Virus record (IMG/VR): IMGVR_UViG_2802429251_000006
Length of the DNA stretch: 4,841 bases
Strand: one strand, 5' to 3'
Source: a virus
Taxonomy: Duplodnaviria > Heunggongvirae > Uroviricota > Caudoviricetes
Shown here: piece after piece, positions 1-4,841 of the stretch
How the letters are laid out: each line of letters opens with the position of its first letter
Numbering within the stretch: position 1 is the first letter of the stretch
Program-made: the position numbers and the translations under genes
The notes under the pieces: generated by a model
Told to the model about the DNA's origin: nothing
Database searches by the model: none
What the model saw: only the letters and a program-made list of their open reading frames with translations

Positions 1-125
1 CCACGGGAATATCTGCGACAGCGGACCAGTAATGGGTTAAGTGATAACAGGTGTCTGGAAATATAGGGGCAAATCCATTGTGTAAATGTTAACAAATGTG
101 CGTTTTATTTGATCTGATTCGCTGT

Positions 126-155
126 TTGAGCGTCCAAAACAACGGTATATATAAT
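126..155 (+). promoter_or_regulatory. Candidate sigma70 promoter for the lipoprotein moron (TTGAGC, 18-bp spacer, TATAAT)
   Basis: Seen in sequence: TTGAGC at 126-131 and a perfect TATAAT at 150-155, about 30 nt upstream of the ATG at 185; GAGGA Shine-Dalgarno at 177-181. Hexamer match only; no transcript data. Confidence 0.35.
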
Positions 156-184
156 CCTTTACTATATGACATATGTGAGGAAAA

Positions 185-613
185 ATGGGTTTTCGTAGCG
201 CATCAATTCTTACGTTGATTATTAGTGGGATTATTATCGGGTGCACTGATGCTGTATCGACAAATTATCATGACCGTACATCATATTACTCCGATAAAGC
301 AATAGAGACACAGTATGTGAGTTCATCTGAACGTACTTCTGATGTTAGTGAGGATATCCGTCTGTATGCCCATCAAATCAAGAGCGCCATCGAAAAACAG
401 TTCGGGGATGCGAGTAAGTATTCAGGAAAAGAGTGTACACTGAGAATGCATATGGCCCCGAATGGCCTTCTACTGGAGGTTAAAAGAGAAAGTGGAGACC
501 TCGATTTATGTCGTGAAGCGATGAATGCGATAAAGAATGCTGATATACCTGCCCCCCCTTCGCCGGAAGTATATAAAGTATTTCAAAATGGGGTGCTGGA
601 TTTTAAACCCTGA
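185..613 (+). CDS. Lipoprotein with TolA domain III-like C-terminal domain (142 aa)
   Basis: N-terminal signal peptide MGFRSASILTLIISGIIIGC with lipobox IIGC. The C-terminal ~85 aa (YAHQIKSAIEKQFGDASKYSGKECTLRMHMAPNGLLLEVK...PAPPSPEVYKVFQNGVLDFKP) aligns nearly motif for motif with my recollection of the E. coli TolA C-terminus (YAGQIKSAIESKFYDASSYAGKTCTLRIKLAPDGMLLDIK...PKPPSQAVYEVFKNAPLDFKP). SD GAGGA 4 nt upstream of the ATG. Confidence 0.8.
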   Translation: MGFRSASILTLIISGIIIGCTDAVSTNYHDRTSYYSDKAIETQYVSSSERTSDVSEDIRLYAHQIKSAIEKQFGDASKYSGKECTLRMHMAPNGLLLEVKRESGDLDLCREAMNAIKNADIPAPPSPEVYKVFQNGVLDFKP

Positions 614-763
614 TATTTATTGTTTTGTAATAAACGGTTTCGGCTTAGGTTTGTTCTGACACAACTACGGCACTGAGCTAAATCTAGCGGATAGTCAGCT
701 CTGAGCCAGTGGCGGACGTAACAACTACTATTGCTGAGATTTTAATGGATTGAGGAGCAAGAA

Positions 764-1159
764 GTGGGATTAAAGAAAATCGTTATGTTGACTTTTTGGG
801 TCAGTTTTGTTGCGGGATGCACACCTTTACACCCTTCAGATTGCCACAAAACTACTGCTACAGGTAGTTGCAGTTCAGGACGCTGGGATGATCAGGATGA
901 ATGGGGGGCGCAAGCGCGGGGAATCAGAGCTGCAATTAATGCCAAACTTGATGAGCCGCATAACTGGAAAGGGAAAAAATGCAGGTTGCATATGGAATTC
1001 TCTCAGGATGGCACGGCGTTAAAAATATCTACCAGTAACGGTGATAAAGCCTATTGCGAAGCGATAAAGTCCGCAGCTCATAAAGCCAAATTTCCGGCCT
1101 TCAACAATCCGGAAGTCTACAGAGATTTTCAGAAATCTGGCTTTGACATGCGAGGTTAG
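764..1159 (+). CDS. Second, diverged lipoprotein with TolA domain III-like C-terminal domain (131 aa, GTG start)
   Basis: GTG start at 764 preceded by GAGGAG (752-757) with a 6-nt spacer. Signal peptide MGLKKIVMLTFWVSFVAGC with lipobox VAGC. The C-terminal region keeps the TolA-III spacing pattern (KKCRLHMEFSQDGTALKI...GDKAYCEAIKSAA...FPAFNNPEVYRDFQ) but is more diverged than the upstream paralog. Confidence 0.7.
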   Translation: MGLKKIVMLTFWVSFVAGCTPLHPSDCHKTTATGSCSSGRWDDQDEWGAQARGIRAAINAKLDEPHNWKGKKCRLHMEFSQDGTALKISTSNGDKAYCEAIKSAAHKAKFPAFNNPEVYRDFQKSGFDMRG

Positions 1160-1284
1160 CTCTTCAATTACTATATCTCATTCATAGCAAACTGACAGAT
1201 TTGATGATGTTCTATATACGAAACCTGTGATGTCAAGTCTGAGCTAATACAAATAAACATAATATCAGAGAAATACATTTTATT

Positions 1285-1306
1285 AGCTCGCTACGGCGAG
1301 CTTTTT
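1285..1306 (+). terminator. Rho-independent terminator (7-bp GC-rich stem, 4-nt loop, T-run)
   Basis: AGCTCGC (1285-1291), loop TACG, GCGAGCT (1296-1302), followed by TTTT (1303-1306). The reverse orientation has no T-tract, so it is unidirectional on +. Confidence 0.6.
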
Positions 1307-1410
1307 ATATTGCATCGTCTCCAGCATATATATCAATTAAGGCTCTGATTGATGTGTCTGGAAGCCTACACATAATAACTATGCCATCCGTTCCGTGCGG
1401 AGGTGAGGCT

Positions 1411-1626
1411 ATGAAATCCATGGACAAAATTTCAACAGGCATTGCCTACGGCACCTCCGCAGGCAGTGCTGGCTACTGGTTTTTACAGCTGCTCGATAAA
1501 GTCACGCCCTCACAGTGGGCAGCAATAGGTGTGCTGGGTAGCCTGGTATTTGGCCTGCTGACGTACCTGACAAACCTTTATTTCAAGATTAAAGAAGACA
1601 AGCGTAAGGCTGCACGGGGAGAGTAA
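1411..1626 (+). CDS. S: Class II pinholin, phage 21 S21-type, with dual-start motif (71-aa antiholin from ATG 1411, 68-aa holin from ATG 1420)
   Basis: Translation [71 protein letters not shown] matches my recollection of S21 closely: Met1-Lys2-Ser3-Met4 dual start, Gly/Ala/Ser-rich SAR-like TMD1, hydrophobic TMD2, basic C-terminal tail. GGAGG at 1399-1403 sits 7 nt before the ATG at 1411. The track ORF starting at 1354 is an in-frame extension with no RBS. Confidence 0.9.
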
Positions 1627-1630
1627 TTCA

Positions 1631-1975
1631 ATGACTCAAAAATATGAACTGATTGTGAAAGGGATCCGCAATTTTGAGAATAAAGTTACGGTAACTTTAG
1701 CGTTACGGGACAAAGAACGCTTTGACGGTGAAATTTTTGACCTGGACATCTCGCTGGACCGTGTTGAAGGTGCCGCGCTGGAGTTTTATGAGGCAGCAGC
1801 CAGAAGGAGCATCAGACAGGTCTTCCTGGATGTTGCTGCCGGGTTATGTGAAGGGGATGAGCTGTCGCCGGAAAAGCGCCCCATAATTTTAGAGGCGCAG
1901 AATGTGTGGATAACCTACAAAGGAAAGCTACCGGGAAGAATTACTGGTTCTCTGAAGACTCCGCCGAAATGGTAA
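1631..1975 (+). CDS. ydfR: DUF1327-family protein (YdfR-like), conserved between holin and endolysin in Qin-type cassettes
   Basis: Translation MTQKYELIVKGIRNFENKVTVTLALRDKERFDGEIFDLDISLDRVEGAALEFYEAAARRS... resembles, as recalled, YdfR of the E. coli K-12 Qin prophage, which also lies between essQ and rrrQ. GGGGAG SD 7-8 nt upstream; starts 4 nt after the holin stop. Family assignment is from memory. Confidence 0.75.
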   Translation: MTQKYELIVKGIRNFENKVTVTLALRDKERFDGEIFDLDISLDRVEGAALEFYEAAARRSIRQVFLDVAAGLCEGDELSPEKRPIILEAQNVWITYKGKLPGRITGSLKTPPKW

Positions 1976-2213
1976 TTTCACCAGCATATTTTTCTTCCAG
2001 TAATACCGCCAGCCACTTGAAAGAATTTTGTTGTTGCTGGGACCATTTGGGGTTGAGTGATTCAAGCTGGAGCGATGCCAGTGTTGGTTGCATTTGTTCC
2101 TTGGGAATTGAGAATGCCAGATATGAAAATGCGACAGTAAGGGCATTTACATCATCCCGAAGCTTGGAAATGCAGTCGAGCAACTCCTGTAGAGAAATGG
2201 TGCTATTGTCCAT
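1941..2213 (-). CDS. Hypothetical small protein (90 aa) encoded antisense in the gap between the DUF1327 gene and the endolysin
   Basis: Minus-strand ORF with ATG at 2213 preceded by GAGAGG and a 7-nt spacer (an ideal SD). Translation MDNSTISLQELLDCISKLRDDVNALTVAFSYLAFSIPKEQMQPTLASLQLE... has a protein-like composition, whereas the same-region + strand ORF (1906-2238) is Cys/Ser-rich and looks like antisense noise. Its 3' end overlaps the last 35 nt of the DUF1327 gene. No homolog recognised. Confidence 0.3.
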   Translation of the reverse strand: MDNSTISLQELLDCISKLRDDVNALTVAFSYLAFSIPKEQMQPTLASLQLESLNPKWSQQQQNSFKWLAVLLEEKYAGEITISAESSENQ

Positions 2214-2318
2214 AAACAATCCTCTCTATTGTATTTAACTATTCCTTGCCTGATTCAACAGGCCGGGACAGATAAACATATCCAGGGTTCAGAAACCGAT
2301 AAATCCTGATAAATATCC

Positions 2319-2861
2319 ATGAACGTAAAAATCAGATACGGCCTGTCGGCTGCCGTTCTGGCACTGATTGCCGTCGGTGCGCCTGCGCCTGATATTCTCG
2401 ACCAGTTTCTGAATGAAAAAGAAGGTAACCACACAACGGCATACCGCGATGGTTCCGGCATCTGGACCATCTGTCGGGGTGCCACGGTGGTGGATGGAAA
2501 ACCCGTTTTTCCCGGTATGAAACTGTCGAAGGAAAAATGCGACCAGGTTAACGCCATTGAACGGGATAAGGCGCTGGCATGGGTGGAGCGCAATATTAAA
2601 GTGCCACTGACCGAACCACAGAAAGCGGGTATAGCGTCATTTTGTCCCTATAACATTGGCCCCGGTAAGTGTTTCCCGTCGACGTTTTATAAGCGGCTGA
2701 ATGCCGATGATCGTAAGGGGGCATGCGAGGCGATTCGCTGGTGGATAAAAGATGGTGGGCGTGATTGCCGCCTGACAAAAGGGCAGAAGAATGGCTGTTA
2801 TGGGCAGGTCGAGCGGCGCGATCAGGAAAGCGCACTGGCGTGCTGGGGGCTGGAGCAATGA
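2319..2861 (+). CDS. R: SAR endolysin (phage 21 R / RrrQ-type lysozyme, T4-lysozyme-like glycoside hydrolase)
   Basis: 180-aa translation begins MNVKIRYGLSAAVLALIAVGAPAPDIL, a weakly hydrophobic Gly/Ala-rich signal-anchor-release domain, then the catalytic triad E35-x8-D44-x5-T50 (EGNHTTAYRDGSGIWT). Overall it resembles the Qin/phage 21 lysozymes as recalled. The stop overlaps the Rz start (ATGA at 2858-2861). Confidence 0.92.
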   Translation: MNVKIRYGLSAAVLALIAVGAPAPDILDQFLNEKEGNHTTAYRDGSGIWTICRGATVVDGKPVFPGMKLSKEKCDQVNAIERDKALAWVERNIKVPLTEPQKAGIASFCPYNIGPGKCFPSTFYKRLNADDRKGACEAIRWWIKDGGRDCRLTKGQKNGCYGQVERRDQESALACWGLEQ

Positions 2862-3394
2862 AAATTAATCCGGATCTTATAGGCGTTGTCGTTATTGCTG
2901 GCCTTTCGGTCGCTCTCGTCAAGAGTTGCTCTCACGCCAGTAATCTTCAGAGCGATAACGACGTTCTGCGAAGTGACAACTCTATGCTGGGGCAGGTAAT
3001 CGCCACCCAGGCATTCAACTTCAATCGATTCAATCAGGTTGCAGAACATGCCAACAGTCTTAACTCCCTGATCGACACCAGCACCGAAAAAACCGTAATC
3101 GAATACCGGGAGATTCTCCGCCGTGAAAAAACCTGTGATCTGCCTGTTCCTGCTGATATCGCTGGTGGGTTGCTCGAATACACGTACCGTTTACGTGCCA
3201 GCGCCATGCACACCGATACCGGCAGACCTAATGAAGCCTATGATCGTACCGCTACCACCAGCTCAATGACCTACTGCCAAGCTGTCTTGTGGATTAAGCC
3301 GCTACTGGCGTTGATAGAAAAAGGAAATAATAATTTTTCGAGTATTCGTGAAATTGATGAGTTGCGTTACAGACCATCTGAGCATGGCCAGTAA
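2858..3394 (+). CDS. Rz: i-spanin Rz (178 aa, type II inner-membrane protein)
   Basis: ATG at 2858 overlaps the endolysin stop. N-terminal TMD LIGVVVIAGLSVALV, then a periplasmic domain of the expected size. A classic Rz1 lipoprotein is embedded in its +1 frame. The track ORF from 2765 is an upstream in-frame extension across the endolysin 3' end. Confidence 0.8.
   Translation: MKINPDLIGVVVIAGLSVALVKSCSHASNLQSDNDVLRSDNSMLGQVIATQAFNFNRFNQVAEHANSLNSLIDTSTEKTVIEYREILRREKTCDLPVPADIAGGLLEYTYRLRASAMHTDTGRPNEAYDRTATTSSMTYCQAVLWIKPLLALIEKGNNNFSSIREIDELRYRPSEHGQ
3123..3269 (+). CDS. Rz1: o-spanin Rz1 (48 aa proline-rich outer-membrane lipoprotein, fully embedded in the +1 frame of Rz; GTG start)
   Basis: Hand translation of the +1 frame: (M/V)KKPVICLFLLISLVGCSNTRTVYVPAPCTPIPADLMKPMIVPLPPAQ*. 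Signal peptide with lipobox LVGC; mature region has 8 Pro in 32 residues and a second Cys. GGGAG at 3108-3112 lies 10 nt upstream of the GTG. The frame opens at 3099 with no in-frame ATG before the hydrophobic core, so GTG 3123 is the likely start. Too short to appear in the supplied ORF track. Confidence 0.75.
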   Translation: MKKPVICLFLLISLVGCSNTRTVYVPAPCTPIPADLMKPMIVPLPPAQ

Positions 3395-3469
3395 GGTTGC
3401 AGGAAATTTAAAATCTGGCGATGAAATTTAATATTAGAAATTCATTGCCTAGTGAGATTAATAATGGGC

Positions 3470-3511
3470 ATCCCTTTGTGACGATAAGCTTTAACACATT
3501 CACAAAGGGAT
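3470..3511. repeat. Perfect 12-bp inverted repeat (ATCCCTTTGTGA / TCACAAAGGGAT) with 18-nt spacer between convergent genes; candidate bidirectional terminator or protein-binding site
   Basis: Arms at 3470-3481 and 3500-3511 are exact reverse complements. The spacer contains the palindrome AAGCTT. Flanking T-tracts are weak, so intrinsic-terminator function is uncertain. Confidence 0.35.
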
Positions 3512-3562
3512 ATTTAATATAGGGTGGTTAATTCCCACTTGCTGTGGTGTTTAGGGGGTAAT

Positions 3563-4255
3563 TCAAATCTTATCTAACTCATTATAGGCTTCGATAATAA
3601 AAATTCTGATTTTAATAAGGCATGATTCAATGAAAGGAATTACTTCATGGTCATTCCCATGGAATCTTATTTTTTTCTCTTCGGTAATGACTATGTTTAA
3701 AGGTACACCATTACCACTTCTTTGTAATTTCCCATTTTCGAAAGTAAAGTCTTCTAATTTTTTGCCATTGATGTGGTTGTTTTTAAAGAGAATTTTTGCT
3801 GAGCTTCCTGCTGTGATTAAACCAAAACCATCTACGCTCACACTTAGGTCTTTAACAGAACTCTCTTCTCTTAAGGGGATTGGTTGTCTGTGCTTTACTT
3901 CATTAGTGAGATTACACATCATTTCCAACCAAGATTCGCCAGTGTGATAATCCTGTATAGAAGTAAAAATTTTATATAATGGAGAAGATGATGGTGGGTT
4001 TATTTTTAGCGTCTTTGAGAAAAATTTATCAATAAACTCTTTTTTTCCGTAAGGGAAATATATTTTGGGGCGCTCATCATTACTGCGTGGAGAAATATAT
4101 TTATCATAGGTATCATTAGCGAGATACTCTAAGGAACTTCGTAAGTTTTCCAAAATAGCTTTGACTTTTACAGGCTTGATATGCTGTGTCTGTCTCATTA
4201 TGTCAAGACTTTCTTCAACTTCTTGCAATAAGTCCAACGAGCCTTCTCTAGACAT
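3563..4255 (-). CDS. Hypothetical 230-aa cytoplasmic protein; AT-rich cargo (moron) gene convergent on the lysis cassette
   Basis: Minus-strand ORF with ATG at 4253-4255 preceded by a strong AAGGAG SD (10-nt spacer). Translation MSREGSLDLLQEVEESLDIMRQTQHIKPVKVKAILENLRSSLEYLANDTYDKY... has no signal peptide or TMD. GC content is clearly lower (roughly mid-30s percent by eye) than in the adjacent lysis genes (about 50 percent). No family recognised. Confidence 0.75.
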   Translation of the reverse strand: MSREGSLDLLQEVEESLDIMRQTQHIKPVKVKAILENLRSSLEYLANDTYDKYISPRSNDERPKIYFPYGKKEFIDKFFSKTLKINPPSSSPLYKIFTSIQDYHTGESWLEMMCNLTNEVKHRQPIPLREESSVKDLSVSVDGFGLITAGSSAKILFKNNHINGKKLEDFTFENGKLQRSGNGVPLNIVITEEKKIRFHGNDHEVIPFIESCLIKIRIFIIEAYNELDKI

Positions 4256-4350
4256 ACAGGTAATTCTCCTTTATGAATTTTCAACATGTTATAACTAATA
4301 ATATATTTATCATATAACTGTATGAATAAATTGTGAGATTAGTAATGCAA
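4256..4350 (-). promoter_or_regulatory. AT-rich upstream region likely holding the cargo gene's own promoter (hexamers not confidently assigned)
   Basis: About 95 nt of greater than 75 percent A+T immediately upstream of the minus-strand ATG, with several TATAAT-like and TTGNNN-like hexamers on the minus strand (e.g. TTGCAT, TATAAC). Position-based inference only. Confidence 0.25.
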
Positions 4351-4610
4351 GTTTCTATCCATAGTGTTCTCTAAGTACCCGCTTCCATCATGTTGTTACG
4401 GACGGTATGGCTAAAACAAAGCACCTGAAGTTAAACGTTCTGAACTTTATGCTCGTTGAGCATATGAATTATCTGTAACCCGATGCGCTGGTTGTGGTTC
4501 ACATTGATGGTCGTAATCAGCAGCGGTGGTGCCTGATGGCATGCAACTTCTTACTTATAAAACTTCGTATGGAATTGTTGCCATAACGAGCCCAGCTTAG
4601 CAGTTTTTAA

Positions 4611-4722
4611 TGGGTCCTCCCGGCAGTGTGTCCTGCCACGGGGCGGGAGCGTCGCGGAAAAAGGCTAGTTTTTGAAATTTCATTCGTCATCACCACTACT
4701 GTAATGTATTGATATTACAGTG
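4611..4722. other. Candidate lambda-like cohesive end site (cosQ-cosN-cosB)
   Basis: TGGGTCCTCCCGGCAGTGTGTCCTGCCACG-GGGCGGGAGCGT-CGCGGAAAAAGG...TTCGTCAT resembles, from memory, lambda cos (ACGGGTCCTTTCCGGTGATCCGACAGGTTACG-GGGCGGCGACCT-CGCGGGTTTTCGC...TTCGTCAT): shared GGGTCCT, ACGGGGCGG, CGCGG and TTCGTCAT blocks at the same spacing. It lies about 175 nt upstream of the next gene start, as in lambda. Not verified by alignment. Confidence 0.45.
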
Positions 4723-4826
4723 GTTTTATTTTTGTGGTGTCGATTTTGATTGTTTTTTGTTCATCACTAACACCGTTTGCCTAAAGTTGTTCGCAAGATG
4801 CATGTTTAAAACATTCTGGAGCGGGT

Positions 4827-4841
4827 ATGGATCGAGAGTTA
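4827..4841 (+). CDS. Probable 5' end of terminase small-subunit gene (truncated by the window; first 5 codons only)
   Basis: ATG at 4827 with GGAG 5 nt upstream (4818-4821), about 175 nt downstream of the putative cosN, mirroring the lambda cos-nu1 layout. Only MDREL is visible, so the call rests on position. Confidence 0.25.

Follow-up and report, generated by a model that had tools for sequence, protein, structure and literature searches.

The window analyzed here, a 4,841-nucleotide (nt) stretch of Caudoviricetes DNA (IMG/VR record IMGVR_UViG_2802429251_000006, taken at its full length), carries an intact set of lysis genes at positions 1411-3394. The interval belongs to a lambdoid prophage at the Escherichia coli Qin site, where it forms the lysis module of the late operon. 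Its products are very probably a pinholin, a signal-anchor-release (SAR) endolysin and a two-component spanin, a statement that covers both the identification of the parts and the mechanism class. Judging from the alignments, the cassette combines three lineages: an S21/EssD holin, a GH24 lysozyme of the RrrQ/933W type and the embedded spanins of HK225/mEp237. Every component is already present in public genomes, as is their combination, and the cassette is in that sense already known.

A previous sequence-only reading of the interval had described a complete and intact pinholin-pathway gene set of the phage 21 type. The completeness was borne out, as the holin (S), endolysin (R) and spanin (Rz and Rz1) open reading frames (ORFs) are all intact on the plus strand, and the interval extends from the start codon of the holin gene to the stop codon of Rz. 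No frame is interrupted in the window, and every lysis ORF is full length against its family profile. The family E-values run from 1e-23 to 2e-54, and the matches are therefore not due to chance. The features on which the argument rests are the following.

1397-1460, plus strand: holin translation-initiation region, with the Shine-Dalgarno (SD) sequence GGAGGUG at 1400-1406, before ATG 1411 and ATG 1420
1411-1626, plus strand: class II holin (pinholin) gene, essD-like, S21 family, 71 amino acids (aa); PF04971, 'Bacteriophage P21 holin S'
1631-1975, plus strand: YdfR-family (DUF1327) gene, 114 aa; PF07041, 145 bits; phrog_406 over 114 of 114 positions
1941-2213, minus strand: convergent gene, 90 aa; phrog_2411, E = 2e-59; RefSeq WP_000370545.1
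2319-2861, plus strand: SAR-type endolysin gene, GH24 'true lysozyme' of the RrrQ/933W-R lineage, 180 aa; PF00959; PHROG endolysin
~2740-2771: recombination joint inside the R 3' end, placed approximately by sliding identity
2858-3394, plus strand: i-spanin (Rz-like) gene, 178 aa; phrog_214 'Rz-like spanin', E = 2e-54, residues 7-168
3123-3269, plus strand: o-spanin (Rz1-like) lipoprotein gene, 48 aa, GTG start, in the +1 frame of Rz; phrog_456, E = 1e-6

Holin, endolysin and embedded spanins

The holin scores 122.2 bits against PF04971 (cut-off 26) and matches two PHROG families, phrog_9876 and phrog_20 ('holin'). It shares 95.8% identity with EssD of the K-12 prophage DLP12, 90.1% with Qin EssQ and 80% with S of the Shiga toxin (Stx) phage 933W. 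Phage 21 S was represented in these comparisons by DLP12 EssD together with the Pfam S21 model. DLP12 is a fair proxy for phage 21 because its lysozyme, RrrD, differs from R21 (PDB 3HDE) at only one of 114 aligned residues. The dual start was read correctly from the DNA: ATG AAA TCC ATG occupies 1411-1422, and the protein begins MKSMDK, with Met1 (nt 1411) and Met4 (nt 1420) as in-frame starts behind GGAGGTGAGG. Initiation at Met1 would give an antiholin-type S71 product with an extra Lys2, and initiation at Met4 the S68 holin form. The first transmembrane domain (TMD1, residues 8-26) is weakly hydrophobic, with a mean Kyte-Doolittle value of 0.22 and 63% Gly, Ala, Ser or Thr (G/A/S/T), and TMD2 (residues 36-57) is hydrophobic (mean 1.44). 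A weak predicted TMD1 followed by a normal TMD2 is the pinholin pattern. The SD sequence can also pair with CACCUCC at 1451-1457 (codons 14-16), forming a hairpin that encloses both starts. With a folding energy of −24.3 kcal/mol (z = −2.6 versus shuffles), this hairpin may control translation from the two starts.

The lysozyme scores 84.4 bits against PF00959 (cut-off 22.3) and is 90.4% identical to RrrQ, 86% identical to 933W R and 35.7% identical to the R21-type RrrD. Glu35, Asp44 and Thr50 align in register with the phage 21 lysozyme R21 (PDB 3HDE, E = 1e-14) and with RrrD (4ZPU), confirming the intact E-D-T triad proposed for a SAR-type enzyme. Their spacing, E35-X8-D44-X5-T50, fits the catalytic motif defined as E-X8-D/C-X5-T (PMC9239132). 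At the N terminus, Lys4 and Arg6 precede an 18-residue stretch from Tyr7 to Pro24 that is rich in Ala, Leu, Gly and Ser and weakly hydrophobic (mean Kyte-Doolittle 1.61). The G/A/S/T content of this SAR-like stretch is 50%, compared with 65% in RrrD, and it is less Gly-rich than that of R21. The first Cys is at position 52. For subtype, we took an Asp in the triad and a SAR domain free of Cys as marks of R21, and a Cys in both the triad and the SAR domain, with disulfide isomerization, as marks of P1 Lyz. We assign the lysozyme to the R21 subtype rather than the P1 Lyz subtype because its triad contains Asp and its SAR domain lacks Cys. The predicted export without cleavage, which would leave the enzyme tethered to the membrane and inactive until depolarization, is supported indirectly, chiefly by likeness to 933W R, which the Young laboratory counts as a SAR endolysin (PMC9239132).

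Rz is an open 178-codon frame whose ATG overlaps the R stop codon in a shared ATGA at 2858-2861, the overlap that had been put forward as translational coupling. The protein has an N-terminal TMD at residues 7-21 (LIGVVVIAGLSVALV, mean Kyte-Doolittle 2.89) and cysteines at positions 24, 93 and 140. By tblastn, homologues lie directly after the endolysin in mEp237 (83.5% identity), HK225 (72%), vB_EcoM-683R1 (53%), Serratia phage OS31 (44%) and ZF40 (35%). HK225, ZF40 and mEp237 belong to the family of embedded i-spanins and o-spanins (Kongari et al. 2018, PMC6139136).

The Rz1 frame encodes a signal peptide, MKKPVICLFLLISLVG, followed by Cys17 within the lipobox LVGC. Its mature peptide of 32 aa contains eight Pro, a second Cys and a Ser at +2, from which sorting to the outer membrane is expected. 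An overlapping Rz/Rz1 pair had been predicted; both genes are present and Rz1 does use the +1 frame, but it is fully enclosed. We call it embedded rather than overlapped because it occupies 0.49-0.77 of the Rz length. All four relatives examined, namely mEp237, HK225, 683R1 and OS31, at 44-84% Rz identity, retain the +1-frame lipoprotein ORF, with a lipobox L-V/S-G-C, a second Cys and a Pro-rich tail with a PLPPAQ-like end. Conservation down to 44% Rz identity is therefore strong evidence that Rz1 is real. GTG stands at the equivalent start in the three E. coli-phage relatives (mEp237, HK225 and 683R1), preceded by GGGAG; the OS31 homologue has no ATG at that point, and the OS31 record annotates an Rz1. 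A non-ATG start seems to be conserved in this family, and it may keep the Rz1:Rz ratio low.

Neither spanin matched Pfam (E ≤ 0.01) or NCBIfam, and forced global alignments of Rz/Rz1 with RzpD/RzoD and RzpQ/RzoQ gave 15-29% identity with near-zero scores. The pair is predicted to work like the spanins of lambda, phage 21 and Qin but lies outside those families. A set of alignments proposed earlier as a check on the Qin genes thus divides along the cassette: EssQ and RrrQ agree, at the identities given above, whereas the alignments against rzpQ and rzoQ were bound to fail, since the spanins are unrelated. RefSeq names Rz a 'hypothetical protein' and leaves out Rz1 in all genomes inspected.

The mechanism that we propose is modeled on the established pinholin, SAR-endolysin and spanin pathway of phages 21, P1 and lambda. 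Late transcription from a Q-dependent promoter would run through the upstream cargo genes and their terminator. The Met1 and Met4 starts would then yield two holin products, of which the S68-type form would build up in the inner membrane while the Met1 form, with its extra Lys2, would delay pinhole formation. Sec would export the lysozyme, and its N-terminal SAR domain would hold it inactive in the inner membrane. At the programmed time, TMD1 of the holin would exit the bilayer and TMD2 would oligomerize into nanometer-scale pinholes, collapsing the proton-motive force. Depolarization would release the lysozyme, allowing it to refold and cleave murein, and a complex of Rz in the inner membrane with the lipoprotein Rz1 in the outer membrane would then disrupt the outer membrane.

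Mosaic origin and the genes between holin and lysozyme

The label 'phage 21-type' stands for the holin sequence but not for the lysozyme or the spanins. A phage 21 cassette as a unit, meaning a contiguous and orthologous S-R-Rz/Rz1 series, is not what the window contains: a 692-nt gap lies between S and R, and R and Rz/Rz1 belong to other lineages. Two genes in that gap, ydfR (1631-1975) and the convergent minus-strand gene (1941-2213), separate holin from lysozyme; the sequence-only reading did not mention them.

What the window shares with phage 21 and DLP12 is the 71-aa MKSM dual-start holin and the same pathway logic, the GH24 fold family with the E35-D44-T50 positions and a Cys-free N-terminal SAR-like domain, an endolysin stop that overlaps the Rz start, and an Rz1 in the +1 frame. 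In contrast, the lysozyme has diverged far from RrrD, the spanins are non-homologous, and essD and rrrD abut in DLP12, where the window has two extra genes. The K-12 Qin cassette (essQ-ydfR-rrrQ-rzpQ/rzoQ) comes closer. It has the same chromosomal site and the same backbone genes (dicB, dicA, dicC, hokD, rem and Q), the same S-ydfR-R order with 90% identity in both S and R, and the same overlap of the R stop with the Rz start. It differs in the C terminus of YdfR, in having no minus-strand gene between ydfR and rrrQ, and in its spanins, RzpQ (DUF2514) and RzoQ.

The spanin end of the cassette instead resembles the family of mEp237, HK225 and ZF40, with which it shares an Rz1 embedded in the +1 frame, an LVGC lipobox and a nearly identical mature Rz1 peptide. 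A GTG at the start position is shared with mEp237 and HK225, and the R 3' end of mEp237 matches the window. These phages nevertheless pair the spanins with other holins (92 aa), HK225 has an R21-type lysozyme, and their Rz proteins differ from the window Rz over its last ~10 residues. For the upstream genes, the S-ydfR-antisense gene-R block recurs in phages Chlobot and vB_EcoS-783R2, S-ydfR-R occurs in mEp460, and similar S and R genes occur in 933W. All four carry other spanin families (lambda-type in 933W and mEp460); 933W additionally lacks ydfR and carries ant between its R and Rz genes.

The joint between these sources falls within the R gene. On its upstream side the window follows Chlobot, at 95-100% identity, and on its downstream side it follows the R 3' end and Rz of mEp237, at 85-98%. 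The megablast match to the S-ydfR-R phages stops at window position 2771. A three-residue insertion (LTKGQKNG) comes from the mEp237-type R and gives the window enzyme 180 aa compared with 177 aa. A second divergence affects the last ~55 nt of Rz, at the start of an AT-rich (30-38% GC) cargo region, and the final ~10 Rz residues are therefore not homologous to mEp237.

Within the S-R gap, ydfR starts 4 nt past the holin stop, with its own SD sequence inside the holin 3' end. Residues 1 to ~70 of the protein are conserved with K-12 YdfR, and the C-terminal ~40 residues are a different variant (phrog_406). The gene holds the same position in K-12 Qin, mEp460, Chlobot and 783R2; cassettes of the Qin and mEp460 types commonly carry it as an accessory gene between S and R. 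[quoted passage not shown] The conserved part of the window protein corresponds to this segment. PADLOC found no match for YdfR.

The convergent gene shares 35 nt with the 3' end of ydfR. Its frame is uninterrupted in phage 783R2, where nt identity is 88% and substitutions at the three codon positions number 10/5/16; by this comparative evidence it is a real coding gene. A plus-strand ORF at 1906-2238 was considered as the occupant of the gap and dropped; it gains a stop in 783R2, where the minus-strand ORF is open. The convergent gene is absent from K-12 Qin and mEp460, which makes it an indel relative to both, and in strain ECC-1470 ISEc52 has inserted into it. AlphaFold2 (AF2) gives the 90-aa protein a four-helix model with a predicted local distance difference test (pLDDT) score of 75. 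A Foldseek search of this model against the PDB returned no match at E ≤ 0.001, and the protein had no Pfam or PADLOC match.

The block from S to R is found at 97.7% nt identity in the deposited phage Chlobot and at 88.5% in 783R2. Because Chlobot has this same block, and because the SD-less R start is kept in mEp460, the interruption seems compatible with a working lytic cycle. We regard YdfR and the minus-strand gene as passengers. A more elaborate proposal would have YdfR protect or retime late lysis mRNA, the convergent gene or its transcription damp leaky expression of endolysin and spanins in the lysogen, and the GTG start of Rz1 add to an undescribed layer of control. [quoted passage not shown]

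Intact frames and lysis competence

From the intact ORFs we infer that the prophage keeps a functional lysis module, as the sequence-only reading had held, along with the expression, timing and lysis competence of the cassette. Measured against a diverged relative, substitutions by codon position are 13/6/37 in S and 15/14/58 in R, and the third-position bias in both indicates that these genes evolved under purifying selection.

Several observations weigh against a working pinholin, SAR-endolysin and spanin cassette. R has no recognizable SD sequence and lies 343 nt past ydfR, behind the convergent gene, although the SD-less sequence before R is conserved in phage mEp460. The window starts in an insertion sequence (IS), an IS2-like element that separates Q/pR' from the cassette and could have a polar effect. 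A sister copy has an amber codon in Rz (Q46, CAG to TAG at codon 46; sister coordinates 22781-23317) together with a tape-measure pseudogene, and a sister copy carries ISEc52 between ydfR and R (1014-2183). About one-third of 197 carrier genomes have an Rz that is cut off at nt 327, with a fusion to tail-fibre genes. The amber codon, the ISEc52 insertion and the truncations suggest weak selection on the module. At the protein level, the N terminus of the lysozyme has a possible signal-peptidase site, A18-V19-G20/A21, and may be cleaved. A single-sequence AF2 model of Rz is mostly helical, with a mean pLDDT of 41, too poor to confirm a coiled-coil periplasmic domain. The non-homologous end of Rz also counts here; the extreme C terminus of i-spanins is variable (Kongari et al. 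2018, PMC6139136).

These points bear most directly on whether the cassette is an intact-looking but silent relic, in which a defective prophage leaves the lysis genes unexpressed or insufficient and the open frames reflect only recent ancestry. The IS2-like end at 1-77, which the sister genomes lack, would fit such a history, and the convergent gene and the terminator-like hairpin upstream of the holin could block expression. The decay in sister copies would also fit; it extends from the Rz amber codon, tape-measure pseudogene, ISEc52 and Rz truncation to an IS66 nearby, and the K-12 Qin homologue is itself a cryptic prophage. Q-modified polymerase, however, classically passes terminators and IS polarity, as known from lambda antitermination. 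Every ORF remains full length against its family profile, S and R carry the signature of purifying selection, and among complete genomes most full-length copies share 99% identity or more with the window Rz. On balance, we judge a silent relic unlikely.

It is very improbable, in our estimate, that the lysozyme is not a SAR enzyme, having instead a cleavable Sec signal peptide or being soluble, with the holin a canonical large-hole type. Its N terminus does resemble an ordinary signal peptide, with an n-region containing Lys4 and Arg6, a 13-residue h-region and the A18-V19-G20/A21 site, and its G/A/S/T content falls below that of RrrD. Yet the holin, at 96% identity to EssD, is a member of the S21 family with a SAR-like TMD1, and 933W R, which shares 86% identity with the lysozyme, has served the Young laboratory as a SAR endolysin (PMC9239132). 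Pro follows two of the three small-x-small sites; a Pro at +1 was dropped as a firm bar to cleavage of R, since the A18-V19-G20/A21 site remains. Moreover, a constitutively secreted active enzyme would uncouple lysis from holin timing. We give almost no credence to a cassette whose ORFs at 2858-3394 and 3123-3269 are not spanins and which lacks an outer-membrane disruption step. Such a reading could draw on the RefSeq 'hypothetical protein' at 2858-3394 and the uncalled frame at 3123-3269, on the missing Pfam and NCBIfam matches, on the lack of likeness to RzpD/RzoD or RzpQ/RzoQ and on the uninformative AF2 model. It has to contend with the phrog_214 match to Rz-like spanins, the N-terminal TMD, a position straight after and overlapping the endolysin that recurs in six phages, a +1-frame lipobox lipoprotein kept down to 44% Rz identity, and a family already catalogued as embedded spanins (PMC6139136).

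Prophage site, flanking DNA and significance

Positions 78-4841 of the window are 100% identical to several complete E. coli genomes (ACN001, 2017.09.02CC, GZM7 and others). At least 80% of the window is present in 36 complete genomes, across which near-identical copies of the region are found, and at least 80% of the S-to-Rz span is present in 140 genomes. In a sister genome, the region lies within a lambdoid prophage at the Qin site. The left part reads ynfA-rspAB, integrase, dicB/dicA/dicC, hokD, rem, RusA and Q; two tRNAs come next, and then two TolA-like cargo genes, essD, ydfR, the minus-strand gene and rrrQ. Beyond rrrQ lie the 'hypothetical' gene, a minus-strand 230-aa gene, the terminase, and the head and tail genes. 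The flanks of the cassette within the window contain the following features.

1-77: right end of an IS2-like (IS3-family) element; 93.5% identity to the last 77 nt of K-12 IS2E
185-613 and 764-1159, plus strand: two tandem small ORFs with a TolA C-terminal domain; PF06519, both phrog_5772
1285-1312, plus strand: intrinsic-terminator-like hairpin, AGCTCGC-TACG-GCGAGCT followed by TTTTTAT, between the TolA-like cargo genes and the holin
3563-4255, minus strand: 230-aa gene, AT-rich (30-34% GC), phrog_13652, between Rz and the terminase genes
4827-4841, plus strand: first codons of a DUF1441 gene at the window end, which precedes the large terminase (sister genome 24750-25244)

The IS2-like match stops exactly on the annotated IS boundary, ~108 nt upstream of the first cargo gene. 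As the sister genomes match only from nt 78, the element must have inserted in the source strain. The two TolA-like ORFs have lipoprotein-like N termini (IIGC and VAGC), and RefSeq treats the first (185-613) as a truncated tolA pseudogene. They look like late-region cargo (morons) because they sit just upstream of the holin and are followed by the terminator-like hairpin. A TolA domain III carried by a phage could plausibly hinder colicins or filamentous phages whose entry depends on Tol; PADLOC returned no match for the flanking cargo genes.

The terminator assignment at 1285-1312 is only suggestive, and in a consensus scan the terminator-like sites of the window were no more numerous than expected from shuffling. 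Late transcription presumably has to pass this hairpin by Q antitermination. A promoter scan of the window likewise found no more sites than in shuffles; a sigma-70-like site at 1349-1376, upstream of S, was accordingly dropped as an independent promoter. Rfam, tRNA and repeat scans of the window gave nothing relevant.

On the far side of the cassette, the 230-aa gene is cargo that was probably gained by horizontal transfer, and its insertion falls where the 3' end of Rz diverges. It had no Pfam, NCBIfam or PADLOC match. A long AT-rich hairpin with a T-run lies at 4695-4734, just upstream of the DUF1441 gene, and the cos/packaging region of the prophage is probably at this end of the window.

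For an E. coli host, this is a routine, already-known phage lysis gene set, and its importance beyond annotation is small. The cassette fixes the strand, the operon context and the prophage type (Qin-site lambdoid) for the neighboring cargo genes, the first two of these as proposed earlier from the DNA. It exposes an annotation gap, in which the i-spanin is called 'hypothetical', the embedded o-spanin is omitted by RefSeq, and the family has no Pfam or NCBIfam model. It also provides a clean case of module shuffling with the joint inside the endolysin gene. Finally, the decayed but near-identical sister copies, with their amber codon, IS insertions and truncations, show how fast this module decays, which is relevant to the use of prophage intactness as a marker.

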